Below are positions 3,190 to 58,050 of a DNA stretch of 64,000 nt, piece after piece. The position numbers were made by a program, and so were the translations under genes. Within the stretch, counting starts at the first letter, position 1. Each line of letters opens with the position of its first letter. The stretch comes from a virus (Duplodnaviria; Heunggongvirae; Uroviricota; Caudoviricetes). The notes under the pieces are model-generated. The model was not told the DNA's origin. It did no database searches and saw only the letters and a program-made list of their open reading frames with translations. Location: IMG/VR virus record IMGVR_UViG_3300021979_000001, positions 354,948 to 418,947 of that record; one strand, 5' to 3'.

Positions 3190-3266
<77 letters not shown>

Positions 3267-3277
3267 TTTGTTGCTCT

Positions 3278-3306
3278 CTTATATCGAATGGTGAAACTAT
3301 TGTCAA
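3278..3306 (-). promoter_or_regulatory. sigma70-type promoter for tRNA-Pro
   Basis: TTGACA-N17-TATAAG on the minus strand, about 11 nt upstream of the tRNA. Confidence 0.7.
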
Positions 3307-3309
3307 CAT

Positions 3310-3690
3310 TTAGTTTTCGTGAATCGAAAAATATTCTGGTCCCAATGCTGAAATCAACACTACTTTTCCAGGTAACCCATGTGGATTGTTAAGTTCATCG
3401 ATAACCGAACTCCCTATTCCATCTTCTGGATCAACTCGTAGAAGATCAGTTGGGACATTTTTAACCTGGACTACGGTATTACATCCTTTTTCTTCGGCGA
3501 ACCATAATGCGTCGTCGCTGTCAGATGACAAATACAGATACCTGCTTTGGCCCATATTTGCCCCTTGCGCCCATGAACGCGGAGTCCACCCATTTTTAAT
3601 TAAATTTTCTGCACTATGAGAACATGTTCCATGATATAACACCGGGATAATCATGGTATTTTCTGATACTATATTGATAAAATCTCGCAT
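3310..3690 (-). CDS. small ADP-ribosyltransferase-fold-like protein
   Basis: LYHGT...A..I...G...YLYLSS...A..FA pattern typical of H-type ART/PARP-like phage proteins. ATAAATA motif upstream. Confidence 0.55.
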   Translation of the reverse strand: MRDFINIVSENTMIIPVLYHGTCSHSAENLIKNGWTPRSWAQGANMGQSRYLYLSSDSDDALWFAEEKGCNTVVQVKNVPTDLLRVDPEDGIGSSVIDELNNPHGLPGKVVLISALGPEYFSIHEN

Positions 3691-3754
3691 TATTATCCTA
3701 CGTTAACATGATGCGATTATTTATCTAATATTTCAGGTCAAAACAAAAAACGAA

Positions 3755-3830
3755 TGGTGCCGGGGAACGGATTTGAACCGCTGACACCCGCCGCTTCAAG
3801 ACGGTGTTCTACCAACTGAACTACCCCGGC
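3755..3830 (-). tRNA. tRNA-Phe(GAA)
   Basis: GCCGGGG/CCCCGGC acceptor, CCGTC-TTGAAGC-GGCGG anticodon arm, GGTTCAAATCC, CCA. Confidence 0.9.
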
Positions 3831-3841
3831 ACAAAAAAAGA

Positions 3842-3916
3842 TGGTGTCCCCAACGGGATTTGAACCCGTGCTTTCACCTTGAAAGGGTGATGGCCTAACC
3901 ACTAGCCGATGGGGAC
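3842..3916 (-). tRNA. tRNA-Glu(UUC)
   Basis: GTCCCCA acceptor, TCACC-CTTTCAA-GGTGA, T-arm, CCA. Confidence 0.95.
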
Positions 3917-4209
3917 TATTCTGTTTTGATATATTTACGAATCTTTTTCCGCAAATCAAAAGTAAATGGTCGCTCGTTTTTCTCCAACAAATCTGTTACC
4001 AACGTAGAACATGTAATTCCGCATGAACGCAATGAAACGTCTTCACTTTTTGGTTTCCCAGTAGTAAAAACTCCGGTAATTTCTTCATTGTCAATATCAA
4101 CCACAAAAAAATCGCGATTTTTTACATCGTTGATGTTACGGCAAACAGAAGCGAACCCATGATTTCCAAATTTTTTCGGATTAAATTCAATAACAACATA
4201 TTCAGTCAT
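3916..4209 (-). CDS. hypothetical protein
   Basis: ATG 4209 with an AAGGA RBS and a sigma70-like promoter upstream. The stop codon abuts tRNA-Glu. Confidence 0.6.
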   Translation of the reverse strand: MTEYVVIEFNPKKFGNHGFASVCRNINDVKNRDFFVVDIDNEEITGVFTTGKPKSEDVSLRSCGITCSTLVTDLLEKNERPFTFDLRKKIRKYIKTE

Positions 4210-4273
4210 ACACACATTCCTTTGATTTGTTAATTTATACATTATATATATAGTTAAACTGAATATATGTCAA

Positions 4274-4519
4274 TCAGAAAAAACGGTTTTTCTTTTCAAT
4301 AAAGTATTCCGTATCAGTATTGTAGGTCCAGGACAATATCAAATATTTGGTTCGACTTGCCTTTTTGATGCGATAGTGGATAAAGGTGTCGTCATTAAAC
4401 ACAGAAATTATTTGAAACCCGATCATTCGCAATACAGGATTACATATTACTTTCAGCAACGACCGATGATTTATGATCGATCCATCTTTTTGTTTACGAA
4501 TGATACCTAATTTTAGCAA
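4274..4519 (-). CDS. hypothetical protein
   Basis: 81-aa ORF that fills the gap between neighbours. Confidence 0.5.
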   Translation of the reverse strand: MLKLGIIRKQKDGSIINHRSLLKVICNPVLRMIGFQIISVFNDDTFIHYRIKKASRTKYLILSWTYNTDTEYFIEKKNRFF

Positions 4520-4553
4520 TGATTTATCCTAAATAATGTAAAATGGATTTATC

Positions 4554-5018
4554 ATGAAATTACAAGACTTATTTGAAGCAGTAAGATATGGCCCGAAAGG
4601 TTGGTTTAATACCAATGATAAGACCTGGATTGAAATATCCGGTTACTGGCACCATTCATCGTTTGTTTGGAATCATCCAGACTTGTTTTCATGGAATGAT
4701 ATATTCGGATATTCACCCGAAGATTATTTAGAGCAATTTAACCTGGCTAATATGTTACCACCCGATTATGATGAAACGATTATCGAACCATTAATAGATC
4801 ATGGTTGGGTTCGAATGACTTCAACCATGCATTCCGATAACAATCTTAATGTTTATTTAGATGCCAAGTCTGACCAACCGGCACGAACCGCTATCCGTTA
4901 TATCATCCAGAAAATCATTTCATTTCGGGATATACACGATATTACCATTCAACTAAGTGATGGCCCCGCGCTTAAGTTTGACCAGAAAACCGTTATGGCT
5001 TATCTGCGCGGGAAATGA
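4554..5018 (+). CDS. hypothetical protein with MKLQDLFE leader (possibly virion-packaged)
   Basis: 154 aa. TAAATA at 4530-4535. Oriented against the tRNA array. Confidence 0.7.
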   Translation: MKLQDLFEAVRYGPKGWFNTNDKTWIEISGYWHHSSFVWNHPDLFSWNDIFGYSPEDYLEQFNLANMLPPDYDETIIEPLIDHGWVRMTSTMHSDNNLNVYLDAKSDQPARTAIRYIIQKIISFRDIHDITIQLSDGPALKFDQKTVMAYLRGK

Positions 5019-5019
5019 A

Positions 5020-5095
5020 TGGAGAACCATGTCGGACTCGAACCGACGACACACAGATTAAGAGCCTGTTGTTCTAGCCGCTGAACTAATGGTTC
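5020..5095 (-). tRNA. tRNA-Lys(CUU)
   Basis: GAACCAT/ATGGTTC acceptor, ACAGG-CTCTTAA-TCTGT, GGTTCGAGTCC, U73-CCA. Confidence 0.92.
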
Positions 5096-5109
5096 AATAT
5101 CAAAAAAGA

Positions 5110-5183
5110 TGGTAGCGGGTCCGGGCGACGACCCCGGCTAATCAACGTTATGAGCATTGATCCTTTCCCAGCGAAGCCCCGCC
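5110..5183 (-). tRNA. non-canonical tRNA with CAU anticodon (Met/fMet/Ile2 uncertain)
   Basis: TCAATG-CTCATAA-CGTTGA anticodon arm and CCA end, but the T-loop is GTCGTCG and the D arm is irregular. Confidence 0.7.
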
Positions 5184-5204
5184 AAAAACACACTCGTTGG
5201 TAAA

Positions 5205-5281
5205 TGGTGATCCTGGAAGGATTCAAACCTACAACCTTCGGTTTCGTAGACCGACGTTCTATTCAGTTGAACTACAGGATC
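5205..5281 (-). tRNA. tRNA-Arg(ACG)
   Basis: GATCCTG/CAGGATC acceptor, TCGGT-CTACGAA-ACCGA, CCA. Confidence 0.92.
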
Positions 5282-5288
5282 ATAAAGA

Positions 5289-5373
5289 TGGTAGTCGTAG
5301 GGAGACTCGAACTCCCATGGGAAACCCCACCGGAACCTAAATCCGGCGCGTATACCAATTCCGCCATACGACC
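5289..5373 (-). tRNA. tRNA-Leu(UAG)
   Basis: GGCGGAATTGGTATACGCG D arm, CCGGA-TTTAGGT-TCCGG, long variable arm, A73-CCA. Confidence 0.95.
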
Positions 5374-5384
5374 ATTACTTAATA

Positions 5385-5610
5385 GTCGATCTATACAGAT
5401 CGAAAAGGGGGTTGCGGACGCGTTGTATCGGGGACTTGCACCCAAGACTCCAATCAATTCATAAGACCGACTTAACTTATGAATAACGTGGATTCGAACC
5501 ACATTCTCTCTACCGGCATGCCATAAATGGTGGTAGGCAACTTACATACAACACTTACCCTCACGTTATATCAATTCTTGATTATGACTTAAACGTTATC
5601 ATCATAATCC
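5385..5610 (-). ncRNA. candidate structured RNA with two T-loop-like hairpins inside the tRNA array
   Basis: Minus-strand GTGG-TTCGAAT-CCAC (5488-5502) and GGG-TGCAAGT-CCC (5431-5443), plus 7-9 bp hairpins. No cloverleaf or CCA. Confidence 0.35.
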
Positions 5611-5653
5611 ATCCTATCAACTTCGATCAGGTCAACTTATATTCTAATTTTAT

Positions 5654-5728
5654 TGGTGGAGCCAGTCGGATTTGAACCGACGACCCTTTGCTTGCAAAGC
5701 AAATGTTCTCCCGCTGAACTATGGCCCC
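5654..5728 (-). tRNA. tRNA-Ala(UGC)
   Basis: GGGGCCA/TGGCTCC acceptor with G3:U70, loop TTTGCAA, CCA. Confidence 0.95.
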
Positions 5729-5754
5729 TATTTTCGTGTTTATTTAATCAAAAG

Positions 5755-5828
5755 TGGATGCCCCTGCTGGATTCGAACCCGCGCTAATGACGCCAAAAGC
5801 CATTGTTCTACCACTAAACTAAGGGGCA
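5755..5828 (-). tRNA. tRNA-Gln(UUG)
   Basis: TGCCCCT/AGGGGCA acceptor (U1:A72), ATGGC-TTTTGGC-GTCAT, CCA. Confidence 0.9.
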
Positions 5829-5880
5829 TTAATAATTACGTTATACTACATGATGTTAATTATTGTCAACATCTTTTTTA

Positions 5881-5954
5881 TGGCACGGGTGGAAGGATTC
5901 AAACCCTCACTAACAGTTTTGGAGACCGTTGTGCTATCATTACACCACACCCAT
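5881..5954 (-). tRNA. tRNA-Trp(CCA)
   Basis: ACGGT-CTCCAAA-ACTGT anticodon arm, G73-CCA. Confidence 0.92.
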
Positions 5955-5968
5955 ATATCCATAATGAA

Positions 5969-6055
5969 TGGAGATAGTGACAGGATTCGAACCTGTGCGC
6001 GATAAAATCGTCCGGGGTTGCAATCCGGTGCAATCGACCACTCTGCCACACTATC
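5969..6055 (-). tRNA. tRNA-Cys(GCA) with an atypical long variable arm
   Basis: GATAGTG/CACTATC acceptor, loop TTGCAAC, U73, 15-nt variable region ACGATTTTATCGCGC. Confidence 0.88.
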
Positions 6056-6068
6056 ACCAGTAAAAAAT

Positions 6069-6155
6069 TGGAGGACCGGGTGAGATTCGAACTCACGCTG
6101 CGCTTTCGCGAACGGATTAAAAGCCCGCTGCCATCGACCGCTCGGCCACCGGTCC
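6069..6155 (-). tRNA. tRNA-Lys(UUU) anticodon on a class II (Tyr/Ser-like) body
   Basis: GGACCGG/CCGGTCC acceptor, GCGGG-CTTTTAA-TCCGT, variable arm TCGCGAAAGCGCAGC, U73-CCA. Confidence 0.85.
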
Positions 6156-6165
6156 TCAATAAAAA

Positions 6166-6250
6166 TGGTGGGAAGCCGTAGAATCGAACTACTCCCCTTT
6201 CGGGAACGGATTTACAGTCCGCGTGCTAAAACCATTAACTTTGACTTCCC
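6166..6250 (-). tRNA. tRNA-Tyr(GUA), apparent 8/4 cloverleaf
   Basis: GCGGA-CTGTAAA-TCCGT, 8-bp acceptor GGGAAGTC/GGCTTCCC, 4-bp T-stem GTAG/CTAC, A73-CCA. Confidence 0.88.
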
Positions 6251-10776: not shown

Positions 10777-11250
10777 TTATCCATTCGAGCCATCAACAAC
10801 CTGATCAAACTCATTTTTCTGTGGTGGTTGAAATGACCGAATCATAGAGTCAACAACATCGGGCGGAATAAATTTACCGGTGTTGTTATACCGATCTTCC
10901 AACCGATGATCTAACACTTCGCGGTCAATGTTGTTAAACATCACCGCAATGTGTTCGTATCCTGTGCTATTTTGCAACCAGAATTGCCGGGATTTTACCG
11001 ACATGTTTGTCCGGTCAACAATAATATCATCACCGGCTTGAACTGCCTGCAAAAAAAGTTCATGCATGAATTTGGTTGCGTCTCCCATCACGCCCATATT
11101 GAAGGCATCAGAATACGAACACCCGTTATCACGAGCGAACTGTTCAATCCAATCATCCGTCGAAATGACAACGGTTGATGGGGTTGTGTTTTTTGCACGC
11201 CAGGTAGATTTTCCTGATCCCGGTGGACCAATCAACATGTATAGCTTCAT
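10777..11250 (-). CDS. P-loop kinase, polynucleotide kinase-like (AAA_33)
   Basis: MLIGPPGSGKST Walker A, ISTDD, IIVDRTN...R and IP..VV..M motifs. Confidence 0.85.
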   Translation of the reverse strand: MKLYMLIGPPGSGKSTWRAKNTTPSTVVISTDDWIEQFARDNGCSYSDAFNMGVMGDATKFMHELFLQAVQAGDDIIVDRTNMSVKSRQFWLQNSTGYEHIAVMFNNIDREVLDHRLEDRYNNTGKFIPPDVVDSMIRSFQPPQKNEFDQVVDGSNG

Positions 11251-11263
11251 TCTGTTTTCCTGT

Positions 11264-11476
11264 TTAGTCACTGTCCCATGTAGCTTTCCATGGGGCAATT
11301 ATAGTTGCGAGGTCGGTGACAGTTATTCGTATTATTAGCATAATCGGCCAAAACAGAAAAAACATGAGTGACCAGAATAACGCGGAGATCGTCGAATGCC
11401 GGACATACAACCGCCATGATAATTCAAATATGGCGATCAGTGCCGACAAAGTAGTCCAACATATAATGAAAATCAT
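11264..11476 (-). CDS. small two-TM membrane protein
   Basis: Two hydrophobic stretches. ATGA overlap with the upstream gene. Confidence 0.55.
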   Translation of the reverse strand: MIFIICWTTLSALIAIFELSWRLYVRHSTISALFWSLMFFLFWPIMLIIRITVTDLATIIAPWKATWDSD

Positions 11477-12347: not shown

Positions 12348-13490
12348 ATGAAATTGGACCTGTCTGTATTACCAAAAGGGGCAAAAAAACTTCAATGTGC
12401 ATTTTCGGCGCATGGATTTCCGTTATATCTGGTTGGCGGGGCAGTTCGTGATGTTGTTCGCGGCGAACCTGCCAAAGATTTTGATCTGGCAAGCGCCGCA
12501 ACGCCGGATGAAATGGTTGCAATATGCAATGAATTTGATTTTCATTACATACCAACCGGGCTGAAACACGGCACCCTTACCGTCATGGTCAATTCGGTTG
12601 GTTATGAGATAACAACCTTTCGGACGGAAACGGACCATGACGGTCGTCATGCAACGGTATCCTACACGCGGGAACTGTCCGAAGATTTGGCCCGTCGTGA
12701 TTTCACCGCTAACGCAATGGCCGTGAGCCTTGAAACGAATGAACTGGTTGATTTGTTCGGTGGTTACGATGATGCAAAAAATGGTGTTGTTCGCTTTGTT
12801 GGTGATGCCAATGCCCGCATAACCGAGGATTTTCTTCGGATATTCCGGTTTTTTCGGTTCAATGCCCGGTTTGGACATCGCGCAAGCAAAACCATGTTGC
12901 AAGTGATGAACCAAAACAAGCATGGTGTCGCATCCCTTTCCGGGGAACGGATATGGAGCGAAATGTCCCGTATACTGTCTTATGACACTTTTGCCGGGAC
13001 CATGGCTGATCTTCGCATGTGCGGGGTTCTTGATGTTGTTGGGATGATGTTACCGGTGGATGTCTCAATGCCATTACCAGCCAAAAAAGCAACCCCTGCT
13101 GCAATGATGGGGTTCATGATGCAGGATATGTCTGCCACCACATTTGACAAACTGGTGCGGCGGTTAAAATTCAGCGTGAATGAAATGAAATTGGCACATT
13201 TCGTTCATACTAATGCAGGTCTGGTATCGGAATCAGAATTGAAGTGGATGGTGTTGAATGGAACCCCGAAAACTTGGGTTGTTGATTTGCTGACCGTGAC
13301 AAGTTCAATGCTGCTTGATGATTTTATGACATGGGACGTTCCAAATTTCCCAGTTCGTGGATCGGATTTGCTGGAAGCAGGAATGGTGCCAGGCAAAGAA
13401 CTTGGTAATACATTACATGCATTGAAACGGCACTGGTTTGACAATGGCTGTGTTAAAACCAAAGATGACCTTATGGCAATGGTTGTCTAA
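12348..13490 (+). CDS. cca: CCA-adding tRNA nucleotidyltransferase (class II)
   Basis: VGGAVRD, DFDLA, GLKHGT, EITTFR, DLARRDFTANAM, RITEDFLRIFR and SGERIWSE motifs. Confidence 0.92.
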   Translation: MKLDLSVLPKGAKKLQCAFSAHGFPLYLVGGAVRDVVRGEPAKDFDLASAATPDEMVAICNEFDFHYIPTGLKHGTLTVMVNSVGYEITTFRTETDHDGRHATVSYTRELSEDLARRDFTANAMAVSLETNELVDLFGGYDDAKNGVVRFVGDANARITEDFLRIFRFFRFNARFGHRASKTMLQVMNQNKHGVASLSGERIWSEMSRILSYDTFAGTMADLRMCGVLDVVGMMLPVDVSMPLPAKKATPAAMMGFMMQDMSATTFDKLVRRLKFSVNEMKLAHFVHTNAGLVSESELKWMVLNGTPKTWVVDLLTVTSSMLLDDFMTWDVPNFPVRGSDLLEAGMVPGKELGNTLHALKRHWFDNGCVKTKDDLMAMVV

Positions 13491-55788: not shown

Positions 55789-58050
55789 TTAGACGAGGAT
55801 AATATCCCCATCTTTAACATCAACCGTGCAATCACCGCCATGTTCCAGATTTCCCATGATCATTTTCCGTGCCAACGGCGTTTTGATCGCATCGTTGATG
55901 ACACGGGACATCGGACGCGCACCATAATCTGGATCAAACCCTTTGTCCGAAAGCCATTTCTTCGCATCCGGGGTGATTGTCAAATTGACATCGTTTTCTT
56001 TTGCATGGGCAACAACCTTAGCAAAAAACTTATCAACAATCATCAGCATCGTATCTTTTTCCAGACGATTGAAGACGATCACCTTATCAATCCGGTTGCG
56101 GAACTCCGGTGCATATTTCTTTTCAATCGCCGACTTTGCCGCTGTTGCCACATCAATTTGATGTCCCGAGCCGAATCCCAAGGGTTTCTTGCTCATTTCA
56201 AACGCACCGGTGTTGGTGGTCATGACAAGCACGGTATGTGAAAAGTCAATCGTTTTACCTTTTGTATTGGTAAGACGACCACCGTCCATCACCTGCAACA
56301 ACAGGGTGAAAATATCGGGATGGGCTTTTTCAATTTCATCAAGGAGGATGACGCAGTGTGGGTTTTTTTCAACCTCACTGGTAAGTTTTCCACTCCCACT
56401 TGCTTCATCATACCCGACGTAGCCAGGCGGAACACCGATCAACCGCGAAATTGAATGTTTTTCTTGGTATTCGGACATATCAAACCGCAACAGTTTAAGC
56501 CCAAGTGTTTCGGCAAGCTGTTTGGTTGCTTCTGTTTTCCCAACACCGGTGGGGCCAGCAAACATGAAACAACCCAAGGGTTGGTCATGGTCCCGCAACC
56601 CAGCACGGGCAACAATCGTTGCATCAACAAGATTTGAGATTGCGGTGTCTTGCCCGAAAACGACTTTTTTCAAGTCATCTTCCAACGTTAAGATTTTCTC
56701 CCGTTCACCTTCTGTGATCATCTTTGCAGGAATGTTGGCAATTCGCGCAACTTCTGCCTGGATGTCGGCCAACGTGATTACTTTATCTGACCGATCAGAC
56801 AGAGAAATTTCAGCCCCGACTTCATCCATAACGTCAATGGCCTTATCAGGCAAATGTTTATTGACAATATGTCGGGTTGCCAATGACACCGCCGCATGAA
56901 CCGCCTCGTCCGAATATTTGACATTGTGGAAATCCTCATAGTAGGGTTTAAGCCCCATCAGGATTTCAACCGTGTCGTCATAGTTCGTTTCTTCAATGGT
57001 CAGTTTCTTGAACCGACGAGCCAGCGCGGCGTCTTTTTCAACATGAAGGGTATATTCATCATGCGTCGTTGCACCGATACAACGGATCGTGCCATTGGCA
57101 AGGCCAGGTTTCAAGATATTGGCAACGTCAAGTGCTGATCCGCCGCCAGACCCGGCACCAAGCATCGTGTGAATTTCATCAATGAAGATAATCGAATCGG
57201 GTAGAATTGCCAATGACTCTGCAATCTGCTTGACACGTTCCTCCATTTCACCACGATATTTTGTTCCGGCAATCAACGAACCCATGTCCAGCGACCAGAT
57301 TTGTTTGGTTGATATGCTGCTTGGCACATCACCATTCACGATCTTCATCGCCAATCCTTCTGCTACCGCAGTTTTACCCACGCCCGGTTCACCAACCAAC
57401 ATAACATTGGATTTCTTTTTCAGGTGGAGGATTTTAACCAGCCGGTCAATTTCGGTTGAACGACCGATCAATGGATCGATCTTTCCAACGGGCATTTCAT
57501 TCAGATTTTTGCAATATTTACGCAGACATTTGTCAGCTTCATCCGGCGATGTGATACTTTTCGCCGCACCACCGATACCTTCGGCCAGTTCTTTTTCGCG
57601 ACGATCCAGATTCAACGCAGACTGCATTGCCGCAAGATCAATCCCCATATCCGATAGCATTTTCATGCCGACTTCATCGGAGATCATATGTGGCGTTTGA
57701 TCAATGATATAGGTGATGCCCAAGATCAAGTCTGCGCCAGTGCAATCGGAACGACCCCGCAGCGCCCCATTTCCAACAACATATTGGATAAGGTCTTTCG
57801 CGCCCTTGTTTTGTTTCACTTCACCGTAATGGGAAGTGGGAATTTGACAATAATGATCATCAATATTCGAGATCATCTCGTCGATGTCGTCATCCGTGAT
57901 TTCGGGATTTGCCGCTTTAATGCTGGCACGAGCATCGTCATCATCCAATGCTGACAGCAAAAAATGATCGAGATTCACGAACTTAGATTTATAATGTGCT
58001 GCATATTTAAATGCAGCGTCCACCAATCCTTGAATTTTTTCGTGCGACAT
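55789..58050 (-). CDS. clpA: ATP-dependent Clp protease ATPase subunit ClpA
   Basis: Two AAA+ modules (GEPGVGKT/FIDEIH and GPTGVGKT/LLDEIEKAHPD), no ClpB middle domain, LGF ClpP-docking loop. Confidence 0.9.
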   Translation of the reverse strand: MSHEKIQGLVDAAFKYAAHYKSKFVNLDHFLLSALDDDDARASIKAANPEITDDDIDEMISNIDDHYCQIPTSHYGEVKQNKGAKDLIQYVVGNGALRGRSDCTGADLILGITYIIDQTPHMISDEVGMKMLSDMGIDLAAMQSALNLDRREKELAEGIGGAAKSITSPDEADKCLRKYCKNLNEMPVGKIDPLIGRSTEIDRLVKILHLKKKSNVMLVGEPGVGKTAVAEGLAMKIVNGDVPSSISTKQIWSLDMGSLIAGTKYRGEMEERVKQIAESLAILPDSIIFIDEIHTMLGAGSGGGSALDVANILKPGLANGTIRCIGATTHDEYTLHVEKDAALARRFKKLTIEETNYDDTVEILMGLKPYYEDFHNVKYSDEAVHAAVSLATRHIVNKHLPDKAIDVMDEVGAEISLSDRSDKVITLADIQAEVARIANIPAKMITEGEREKILTLEDDLKKVVFGQDTAISNLVDATIVARAGLRDHDQPLGCFMFAGPTGVGKTEATKQLAETLGLKLLRFDMSEYQEKHSISRLIGVPPGYVGYDEASGSGKLTSEVEKNPHCVILLDEIEKAHPDIFTLLLQVMDGGRLTNTKGKTIDFSHTVLVMTTNTGAFEMSKKPLGFGSGHQIDVATAAKSAIEKKYAPEFRNRIDKVIVFNRLEKDTMLMIVDKFFAKVVAHAKENDVNLTITPDAKKWLSDKGFDPDYGARPMSRVINDAIKTPLARKMIMGNLEHGGDCTVDVKDGDIILV

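Follow-up and report, generated by a model that had tools for sequence, protein, structure and literature searches.

The genes considered in this study are a tRNA-Lys(UUU) at positions 6069..6155 and a tRNA-Cys(GCA) at positions 5969..6055, neighbors on the minus strand of a 64,000-nt stretch of viral DNA that I will refer to as the window. The window comprises bases 354,948-418,947 of a 457,165-bp IMG/VR virus record (IMGVR_UViG_3300021979_000001) that CheckV rates as complete. ARAGORN finds 11 minus-strand tRNAs in the window, between positions 3190 and 6155, and in the whole phage 20 tRNAs plus a two-piece transfer-messenger RNA (tmRNA). The first gene of the array (6166..6250, minus strand), recognized by its minimum free energy (MFE) fold and by a homolog, is an 8/4 tRNA with the anticodon GUA. 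The Lys and Cys genes, supported by ARAGORN, Rfam and a structural parse, come next, and the array continues with tRNAs for Trp, Gln, Ala, Leu(UAG), Arg, Lys(CUU), Glu, Phe and Pro (3190..5954, minus strand; ARAGORN). One of these, the tRNA-Lys(CUU) at 5020..5095 (minus strand; ARAGORN), is an ordinary class I tRNA with U73 and serves below as a comparison gene. The tRNA set of the phage also includes two tRNA-Ser with variable arms of 6-7 bp, one of which, Ser(GCU), has U73.

The Lys and Cys genes are each 87 nt long according to ARAGORN, and on the Rfam tRNA model (RF00005), whose gathering score is 29, they reach 56.2 and 55.4 bits, respectively. The structural parse gives both genes 7 of 7 acceptor pairs, 5 of 5 T-stem pairs, a 7-nt anticodon loop with U33, the discriminator base U73 and an encoded CCA. 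They have a D region in common (GCCGAGCGGUCGAUGGC versus GCAGAGUGGUCGAUUGC), in which a 3-bp D stem (GCC...GGC in Lys, GCA...UGC in Cys) surrounds the loop GAGYGGUCGAU. The variable regions are 15 nt each, UCGCGAAAGCGCAGC in Lys and ACGAUUUUAUCGCGC in Cys. The first folds into a hairpin of one nucleotide, a 3-bp stem (CGC/GCG), a GAAA loop and a CAGC tail, the second into one nucleotide, a 4-bp stem, a UUU loop and a 3-nt tail. I call both tRNAs class II, since each has a variable region of at least 10 nt that forms its own hairpin, and each combines a D stem of 3 bp with an enlarged loop in the manner of bacterial tRNAs for Ser and Tyr. The Lys tRNA also has a canonical anticodon loop (CUUUUAA), G18G19 and a T loop. 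In the Cys tRNA an A31-C39 mismatch closes the 5-bp anticodon stem, and the anticodon loop (UUGCAAC) carries U32/C38, most phage tRNA-Cys having CUGCAAA.

Bacterial tRNAs with long variable arms are normally confined to Ser, Leu, Tyr and Sec (selenocysteine). An earlier prediction, made from the letters of the window, had noted 87-nt tRNAs for Lys(UUU) and Cys(GCA) with a shared D region, U73 and 15-nt variable arms, and had considered such arms abnormal for bacteria; all of this is borne out. It had further remarked that the Lys arm resembles that of tRNA-Tyr, and this too holds, both in the geometry of the family described below and in a comparison of the stretch running from the anticodon through the variable region, where the Lys tRNA agrees with its GUA neighbor at 25 of 31 positions, a comparison that includes one compensatory stem change.

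The Lys tRNA is a member of a conserved, covarying family of phage tRNAs, of which I collected at least 36 distinct members. By BLAST, annotated tRNA-Lys genes of 87-89 nt appear in four cultured phages. That of Rhodobacter phage RcXuper is 85% identical to the window gene over its full length, and RcXuper has both UUU and CUU versions; its tRNA array lies within the first 30 kb, where no class I tRNA-Lys is annotated, and both annotated Lys tRNAs are long-armed. Mesorhizobium phage Cp1R7A-A1 carries long-armed UUU and CUU versions plus a long-armed tRNA-Asn, and members are also present in Rhizobium phage RHph_I1_18 and Microcystis phage Mwe-JY26. GenBank records label the members simply as tRNA-Lys. 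Further members came from a scan of IMG/VR and of species genomes with a pattern covering the D loop and anticodon arm. In IMG/VR this matched 22 contigs, 21 with such a tRNA and one (locus L021) a chance match within coding sequence; no tRNA was obtained from the pattern-scan loci L021, L031 and L033. The window gene scores 90.5 bits on the family covariance model (R1), whose training set included that gene.

When the 36 distinct members are aligned on the cloverleaf, 97.8% of the cells pair, as compared to 33-51% when the partners are slid as a control. Both partners vary in 16 of 20 pairs, among them all three pairs of the variable arm. For both reasons the Lys fold is not a product of chance. 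The arm begins with one unpaired 5' base, followed by a stem of 3 bp in 21 members and 4 bp in 12; of 35 hairpins, 25 have a GNRA tetraloop and 24 a CAYC tail. This is the geometry of phage and bacterial tRNA-Tyr (one nucleotide, 3 bp and a 3-nt tail), and it differs from that of tRNA-Leu and of tRNA-Ser (4-7 bp with a tail of 0-2 nt).

Two features of the phage point to its host. Its two-piece (permuted) tmRNA, at G000:C1:160209-160554 on the plus strand, is of the alphaproteobacterial type (Rfam alpha_tmRNA, RF01849; 134.5 bits), and a ClpA-like AAA+ unfoldase encoded in the window (55789-58050, minus strand) has named nearest relatives that are all from Alphaproteobacteria, with about 45% identity to alphaproteobacterial ClpA. 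Because of the tmRNA type and these relatives, the host is probably an alphaproteobacterium. The tmRNA tag reads ANDNVASNMAVAA. A ClpP gene lies elsewhere in the phage, which together with the ClpA-like unfoldase may supply its own Clp protease. Around the tRNA array, a scan for promoters and terminators gave no signal exceeding that of shuffled sequence, and a neighboring open reading frame (ORF) of 576 amino acids had no match among phages by tblastn.

Long-armed tRNA-Lys might have been standard in the host lineage, which the earlier prediction had named as grounds for its own refutation, and the results are to the contrary. The pattern scan of 185,579 species genomes matched 10, of which 8 proved real. 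Six of the eight belong to arrays that comprise 8 to 31 tRNA genes, one of these being the same element as an IMG/VR provirus, and the other two are lone genes within the stretch fetched. The covariance model finds true members, at 73 bits or more, in five carrier genomes, and three of the carriers (G001, G002 and G005) also hold the canonical class I tRNA-Lys(UUU) of 75-76 nt with A73. Among 150 sampled Alphaproteobacteria, no match to the model exceeded 74 bits outside one known carrier, and the seven best matches checked there were six tRNA-Ser and one tRNA-Tyr. Every cellular tRNA-Lys checked has a 4-bp D stem and a 5-nt variable loop. Hosts thus keep class I tRNA-Lys, the long-armed form is nearly absent from chromosomes, and the family is phage-borne rather than a feature of the host.

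Lysyl-tRNA synthetase (LysRS) exists in two classes, and the base A73 of bacterial tRNA-Lys counts weakly as a determinant for the class II enzyme and marginally for that of class I (PMC9976931). I considered the idea that the extra arm is tolerated only with class I LysRS, where it would face solvent, and rejected it, since LysRS is of class I only in the two Rhizobiales among the five carrier genomes, the remaining three having class II alone. There is, nonetheless, a suggestive pattern in which base 73 of the family tracks LysRS class. The A73 form occurs in four carriers where class II LysRS is shown or expected (three tested), and the U73 form in both tested carriers of class I LysRS, the exceptions being the Microcystis phage (U73) and Rhizobium phage RHph_I1_18 (A73). 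A search of the phage for its own LysRS or cysteinyl-tRNA synthetase (CysRS) returned only a sub-threshold class II fragment of 22 bits and a frameshifted relic of a CysRS N-terminus. The fragment, an ORF of 201 amino acids (G000:C1:174918-175523, plus strand; L006:1480-2085), resembles the core of class II Asp/Asn/Lys synthetases (22.2 bits, cut-off 25) and lies about 1.2 kb from a gene for an Rnl1-like ligase, with the ClpP gene coming after. The relic (G000:C1:253039-253291, minus strand; L007) retains the first 86 or so of 301 catalytic-domain positions, split over two frames, and its HIGH motif reads HIGN.

The Cys tRNA presents a different picture. Its D arm (UGGCAGAGUGGU...) is the one commonly found in phage tRNA-Cys, and it is the variable region that is enlarged to form a hairpin. 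Among 108 distinct IMG/VR tRNA-Cys with that D arm, 104 are 71-79 nt long and four are 80-86 nt, so that the variable regions of tRNA-Cys form a continuum in gene length from 71 to 86 nt. The D arm shared with the Lys tRNA was considered as proof that the Cys tRNA derives from a tRNA for Ser or Tyr, and I rejected it because tRNA-Cys of normal length carry the same arm. Other long-armed tRNA-Cys are found in Brevundimonas phages, in two more IMG/VR contigs (86 nt) and in loci L028 and L039. Beyond this genome, the window gene comes nearest to 78-nt phage tRNA-Cys, with 74% identity; it is 66% identical to the phage's own Ser(GCU), the tRNA nearest to both the Lys and the Cys genes within this genome. 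There are two candidate origins for the Cys tRNA: its variable loop may have expanded, or a U73 tRNA-Ser(GCU) may have changed its anticodon by one base.

To decide what amino acids these tRNAs carry, one may compare them with the identity marks known for bacteria. The Lys tRNA has the bacterial Lys anticodon identity (U34, U35, U36) and lacks the bacterial mark A73, having the same U73 as the class I Lys(CUU) of the phage. The Cys tRNA has the major Cys marks, U73 and G34-C35-A36, and U73 plus GCA are the two major determinants of CysRS (PMC9976931); its acceptor stem has A2-U71 and U3-A70 in place of the minor E. coli pairs G2-C71 and C3-G70. Long-armed sister tRNAs within the same arrays keep the marks of their own amino acids: G73 in Asn (with U1:A72 in four of five), G-1:C73 in His, A1:U72 and G73 in Trp, and U73 in all four Cys, in agreement with the identity table of Giege and Eriani (PMC9976931).

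The acceptor stems tell much the same story. Class I and class II tRNA-Lys occur together in twelve arrays, and in seven of these the closest acceptor stem to that of the class II tRNA is that of the class I tRNA-Lys, with identity in three; at two loci (L010 and L035) the two tRNAs have their anticodon and T stems in common as well. In light of these shared stems, the family looks like tRNA-Lys with a replaced D/variable core and not like a tRNA for Ser or Tyr given a new anticodon. The original prediction of anticodon-swapped scaffolds is only partly right, being at odds with the acceptor stems of many family members and with the Cys D arm, which is normal for phage tRNA-Cys.

Codon usage bears on the question as well. 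Among 60 homologs of the ClpA-like protein, 22 columns are Lys in 90% or more, and there the phage gene uses AAA 12 times and AAG 4 times. The columns conserved for Ser or Tyr are free of AAA. Where the gene has TGT or TGC, about one third of the aligned homolog residues are Cys. The phage decodes AAA and TGY by the standard code. AAA amounts to 50.1 per 1000 codons genome-wide, and at about 5% of codons its misreading would damage every protein. Given the marks on the sister tRNAs, the shared acceptor stems, the missing marks for Ser and Tyr (considered below) and the standard code, both tRNAs are probably charged with their cognate amino acids, the one with lysine and the other with cysteine.

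As to how the system might work, the host LysRS would read U34-U35-U36, and if it is of class I, as is likely, base 73 would count for little; CysRS would read U73 together with GCA. Both would then be working elongator tRNAs, supplying a genome in which AAA is about one codon in twenty. The remodeled core would make the phage tRNA-Lys(UUU) distinct from that of the host in the eyes of enzymes that attack or deplete host tRNA-Lys. The explanation I favor overall, cognately charged supply tRNAs whose remodeled core is under selection, seems about as likely to be right as to be wrong. That the core is kept because it is distinct from host tRNA-Lys for attacking enzymes, and so serves counter-defence, is a tentative proposal that falls somewhat short of that. 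A fuller version, in which a Lys core of class II shape is accepted by LysRS, EF-Tu and the ribosome and missed by defences recognizing the body of tRNA-Lys(UUU), in phages whose hosts span several phyla, is possible, but I would lean against it.

Several observations may connect the Lys tRNA with defence. PrrC has tRNA-Lys(UUU) as its substrate and reads the anticodon stem-loop. The same tRNA is a substrate of PARIS, whose AriB cuts between positions 40 and 41, adjoining the exit of the variable arm (PMC11464382). Remodeling is concentrated on the isoacceptor in question: ten arrays combine a class II UUU tRNA with a class I CUU tRNA, and two the reverse. In a sample of 1,594 distinct phage tRNA sequences (IMG/VR loci L041-L286) not selected on Lys, long arms are present in 4 of 49 tRNA-Lys with UUU and in none of 11 with CUU. 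Many other isotypes in the sample have them at low rates (Asn 7/63, Cys 5/124, Thr 4/90, Val 3/58).

The phage also carries genes that may bear on tRNA repair and maintenance: a T4 Rnl1-like RNA ligase (G000:C1:173127-173711, minus strand; 111 bits), a ligase of the Rnl2 family (G000:C1:151206-151748, minus strand; 69.9 bits), and, within the window, a P-loop kinase ORF of the AAA_33 family (10777..11298, minus strand; Pfam PF13671, 77.3 bits) and a nucleotidyltransferase ORF of the CCA-adding-enzyme/poly(A)-polymerase family (12348..13490, plus strand; Pfam PF01743, 112.7 bits; PF12627). RtcB was looked for in the phage and not found. The AAA_33 family includes polynucleotide kinases, and the kinase is a possible member of a tRNA-repair context and so possibly linked to the system; the nucleotidyltransferase would fit a context of tRNA maintenance. 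The link to defence made by the UUU bias and the repair genes is circumstantial, and evasion of nucleases by the long-armed Lys tRNA is plausible.

A number of facts pull the other way. The anticodon loop of the Lys tRNA is canonical, and the known nucleases of tRNA-Lys read the anticodon stem-loop, which an extra arm leaves unaltered. The phage retains its ordinary class I Lys(CUU), and the presence of a repair ligase would argue for repair over evasion. U73 differs from the bacterial Lys determinant A73, and the Lys tRNA has U73, G2-C71 and C11-G24 in common with the phage Ser(GCU), to which it is 66-67% identical, so that some doubt remains as to whether it might be serylated at a low level. 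Long-armed tRNA-Cys are rare and their arms are not stereotyped, so that the evidence of selection on the arm comes from the Lys family. Finally, parts of the D loop and of the anticodon stem were prescribed by the search pattern, and the invariance of these regions and the apparent narrowness of the family are partly by construction.

The main rival to a core maintained by selection holds that the long-armed tRNAs are tolerated variants without special purpose, which persist as codon-supply tRNAs. They could arise through anticodon mutation of a class II tRNA (for example the U73 Ser(GCU)) or by expansion of the variable loop, and be tolerated because the synthetases for Lys, Cys, Asn and the like read mainly the anticodon and base 73. 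Ser(GCU), with its U73, is the closest tRNA in the genome, and only one change separates GCU from GCA. Long arms at low frequency in many phage isotypes, the continuum of tRNA-Cys variable regions, and a demand for AAA that accounts for having a gene for Lys(UUU) all speak in its favor. Against this, one would expect a neutral insertion to drift or vanish, and what one sees for Lys is one arm geometry, a GNRA loop and compensatory changes retained across diverged phages with hosts from several phyla. The acceptor stems, moreover, match class I Lys and not Ser in most arrays, and the remodeling is skewed to the UUU isoacceptor. I consider the tolerated variant unlikely, though deserving of attention.

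An arm of fixed geometry with a conserved GNRA hairpin might instead be a handle, by which some phage factor (a repair ligase or kinase, a CCA-adding enzyme, or a tRNase of host shutoff) separates phage from host tRNAs. The phage does have genes for tRNA handling, and the RcXuper array holds genes for a nucleotidyl transferase, a ribonuclease and a peptidyl-tRNA hydrolase. On the other side, the arm is confined to one or a few tRNAs per array, and no protein was seen to co-occur with the family, though no systematic test was made. This idea strikes me as improbable.

The original prediction had raised the prospect of mischarging, in which seryl- or tyrosyl-tRNA synthetase (SerRS or TyrRS) charges the long-armed bodies and AAA and UGC are recoded; AAA and UGY would then be read in part as Ser or Tyr. 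The class II D arms with their long variable arm invite the idea, as does the U73 of the phage's own tRNA-Ser(GCU), and allo-tRNAs combining G73 or U73 with non-Ser anticodons have been proposed as serine acceptors (PMC5389517). Bacterial serine identity comprises G73, C72, G2-C71, R4-Y69 and C11-G24, along with a large variable arm, the size of which is important (PMC9976931, Table 1). The Lys tRNA shares C72, G2-C71 and C11-G24 with serine tRNAs, and has U73, C4-G69 and a 3-bp arm otherwise; only half the set is present, G73 and R4-Y69 being missing. Its arm of 3 bp with a 4-nt tail, short in the manner of Tyr, is to be compared with 6-7 bp and a 1-nt tail in the phage tRNA-Ser. The tyrosine set (A73, G34, U35) is likewise incomplete, the Lys tRNA having U73, U34 and U35 and the Cys tRNA U73, G34 and C35, so that TyrRS would lack A73 in both and G34 in Lys. 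With AAA at conserved Lys positions of the ClpA-like gene and never at those of Ser or Tyr, with a codon so common that its misreading would be harmful throughout the proteome, and with sister long-armed tRNAs that retain cognate acceptor marks, I regard mischarging and the recoding that would follow from it as quite improbable. Least probable, by a small margin, is a decoy outside translation, a mimic of tRNA-Lys that binds and blocks a host nuclease or sensor. Certain irregular tRNAs do receive an amino acid and yet play no part in translation (PMC5389517), but a perfect 7/5 cloverleaf with T loop, G18G19, canonical anticodon loop and encoded CCA, and the lack of any annotated class I Lys in the array-bearing first 30 kb of RcXuper, speak against a decoy.

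The GUA gene next to the Lys gene is itself unusual. ARAGORN misses it, and its only Rfam match, to tRNA-Sec, reaches 36.4 bits where the threshold is 47. Its MFE fold (z = -3.07) has an 8-bp acceptor stem, a 4-bp T stem, a 5-bp D stem and a 4-bp variable arm, and the gene has A73 and CCA. A homolog in Erythrobacter phage vB_EliS-L02 (L288:1485-1571), absent from the GenBank annotation of that phage, shows compensatory changes in the acceptor and D stems. The possibility that the gene is a decayed tRNA-Tyr was therefore rejected in favor of an 8/4 tRNA with a conserved homolog, and it may be an 8/4 tRNA-Tyr. The earlier description of this neighbor as a tRNA-Tyr needs correction, in that it is not a standard class II tRNA. 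TRNAs of the 8/4 type for Ser and His are described from tRNA clusters of alphaproteobacterial phages, and none of the 8/4 species named in the available part of that source has tyrosine marks (PMC5389517).

Other irregular tRNAs were encountered along the way. In RcXuper (L287) an annotated 72-nt tRNA-Ser(cga) at 11039-11110 would be without a long arm. IMG/VR arrays L023, L065 and L154 contain suppressor-type tRNAs (UUA, CUA), the two CUA ones with a D arm of the Ser/Tyr type. Within the sample of 1,594 tRNAs, 56 of 154 tRNA-Leu have short variable regions (under 10 nt, in genes of 72-78 nt), and 15 of 22 tRNA-Ile(UAU) have long variable arms.

It is useful to set the two tRNAs beside known systems. 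The phage T5 tRNA-Lys (Burman et al. 2024, PMC11464382) is, like the one in the window, a phage tRNA-Lys(UUU) structurally unlike the host tRNA under attack, though for the window tRNA the role of replacement is only proposed. The T5 tRNA has a class I body, and it gains resistance to PARIS from base-pair changes in the anticodon stem; in the window tRNA the anticodon loop is canonical and it is the D arm and variable arm that are replaced. Bacterial tRNA-Tyr has the same 3-bp D stem, GAGYGGUCGA D loop, and 3-bp variable stem followed by unpaired bases as the window tRNA-Lys, which differs from it in its anticodon, in U73 rather than A73, in a 4-nt rather than a 3-nt tail, and in the Lys-type acceptor stems of its family. 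Nematode nev-tRNAs (Hamashima et al. 2012, PMC3333845) offer another comparison. They too are class II bodies with anticodons for amino acids beyond Leu and Ser, but they are eukaryotic and, reportedly charged with leucine, read Gly and Ile codons as Leu and so are genuine misreaders, whereas the evidence for the window tRNAs points to cognate reading.

For the Cys tRNA the nearest parallel is selC* tRNA-Cys, which likewise combines a long arm with U73 and GCA. According to Mukai et al. 2017 (PMC5389517), CysRS charges selC* with cysteine and the product serves in translation, from which it follows that a long arm is no block to CysRS. The body of selC* is of the 8/4 type, like tRNA-Sec, with a bulge and with longer acceptor and anticodon stems, and it occurs in anaerobic bacteria next to selB*. 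The window tRNA-Cys, in contrast, has a 7/5 body with a short arm and a 5-bp anticodon stem with an A-C mismatch, and lies in a phage array. The allo-tRNAs (8/4 and 9/3) described in the same paper also place long arms on anticodons other than those for Ser, Leu and Tyr. The window Lys and Cys tRNAs are unlike them in having 7/5 bodies, a class II rather than a Sec-like D arm, and cognate rather than serine marks; the GUA neighbor at 6166-6250, on the other hand, does have the 8/4 form of an allo-tRNA.

The Lys family is the substantive finding of this work. In the literature searched, a limited collection, I found no description of 7/5 long-armed phage tRNAs for Lys, Asn or Cys. The rule that restricts long arms to Ser, Leu, Tyr and Sec is systematically broken in phages, including the cultured, plaque-forming RcXuper, Cp1R7A-A1 and RHph_I1_18. 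A phage tRNA flagged for an isotype mismatch need not, then, be a pseudogene or a recoding device, a caution for annotation. The family offers ready scaffolds for engineering orthogonal tRNAs, and its natural occurrence lets one test how well an extra arm is tolerated by LysRS of either class. It is also a candidate for a new means by which phage tRNAs may escape tRNA-targeting immunity (PrrC, RloC and PARIS-like systems). If the core has indeed been rebuilt against defences that recognize the tRNA body, it would be the counterpart, at the level of the body, to the anticodon-stem changes that free the T5 tRNA-Lys from PARIS, and would represent a second tRNA-based route of counter-defence as well as a natural exception to the long-arm rule.

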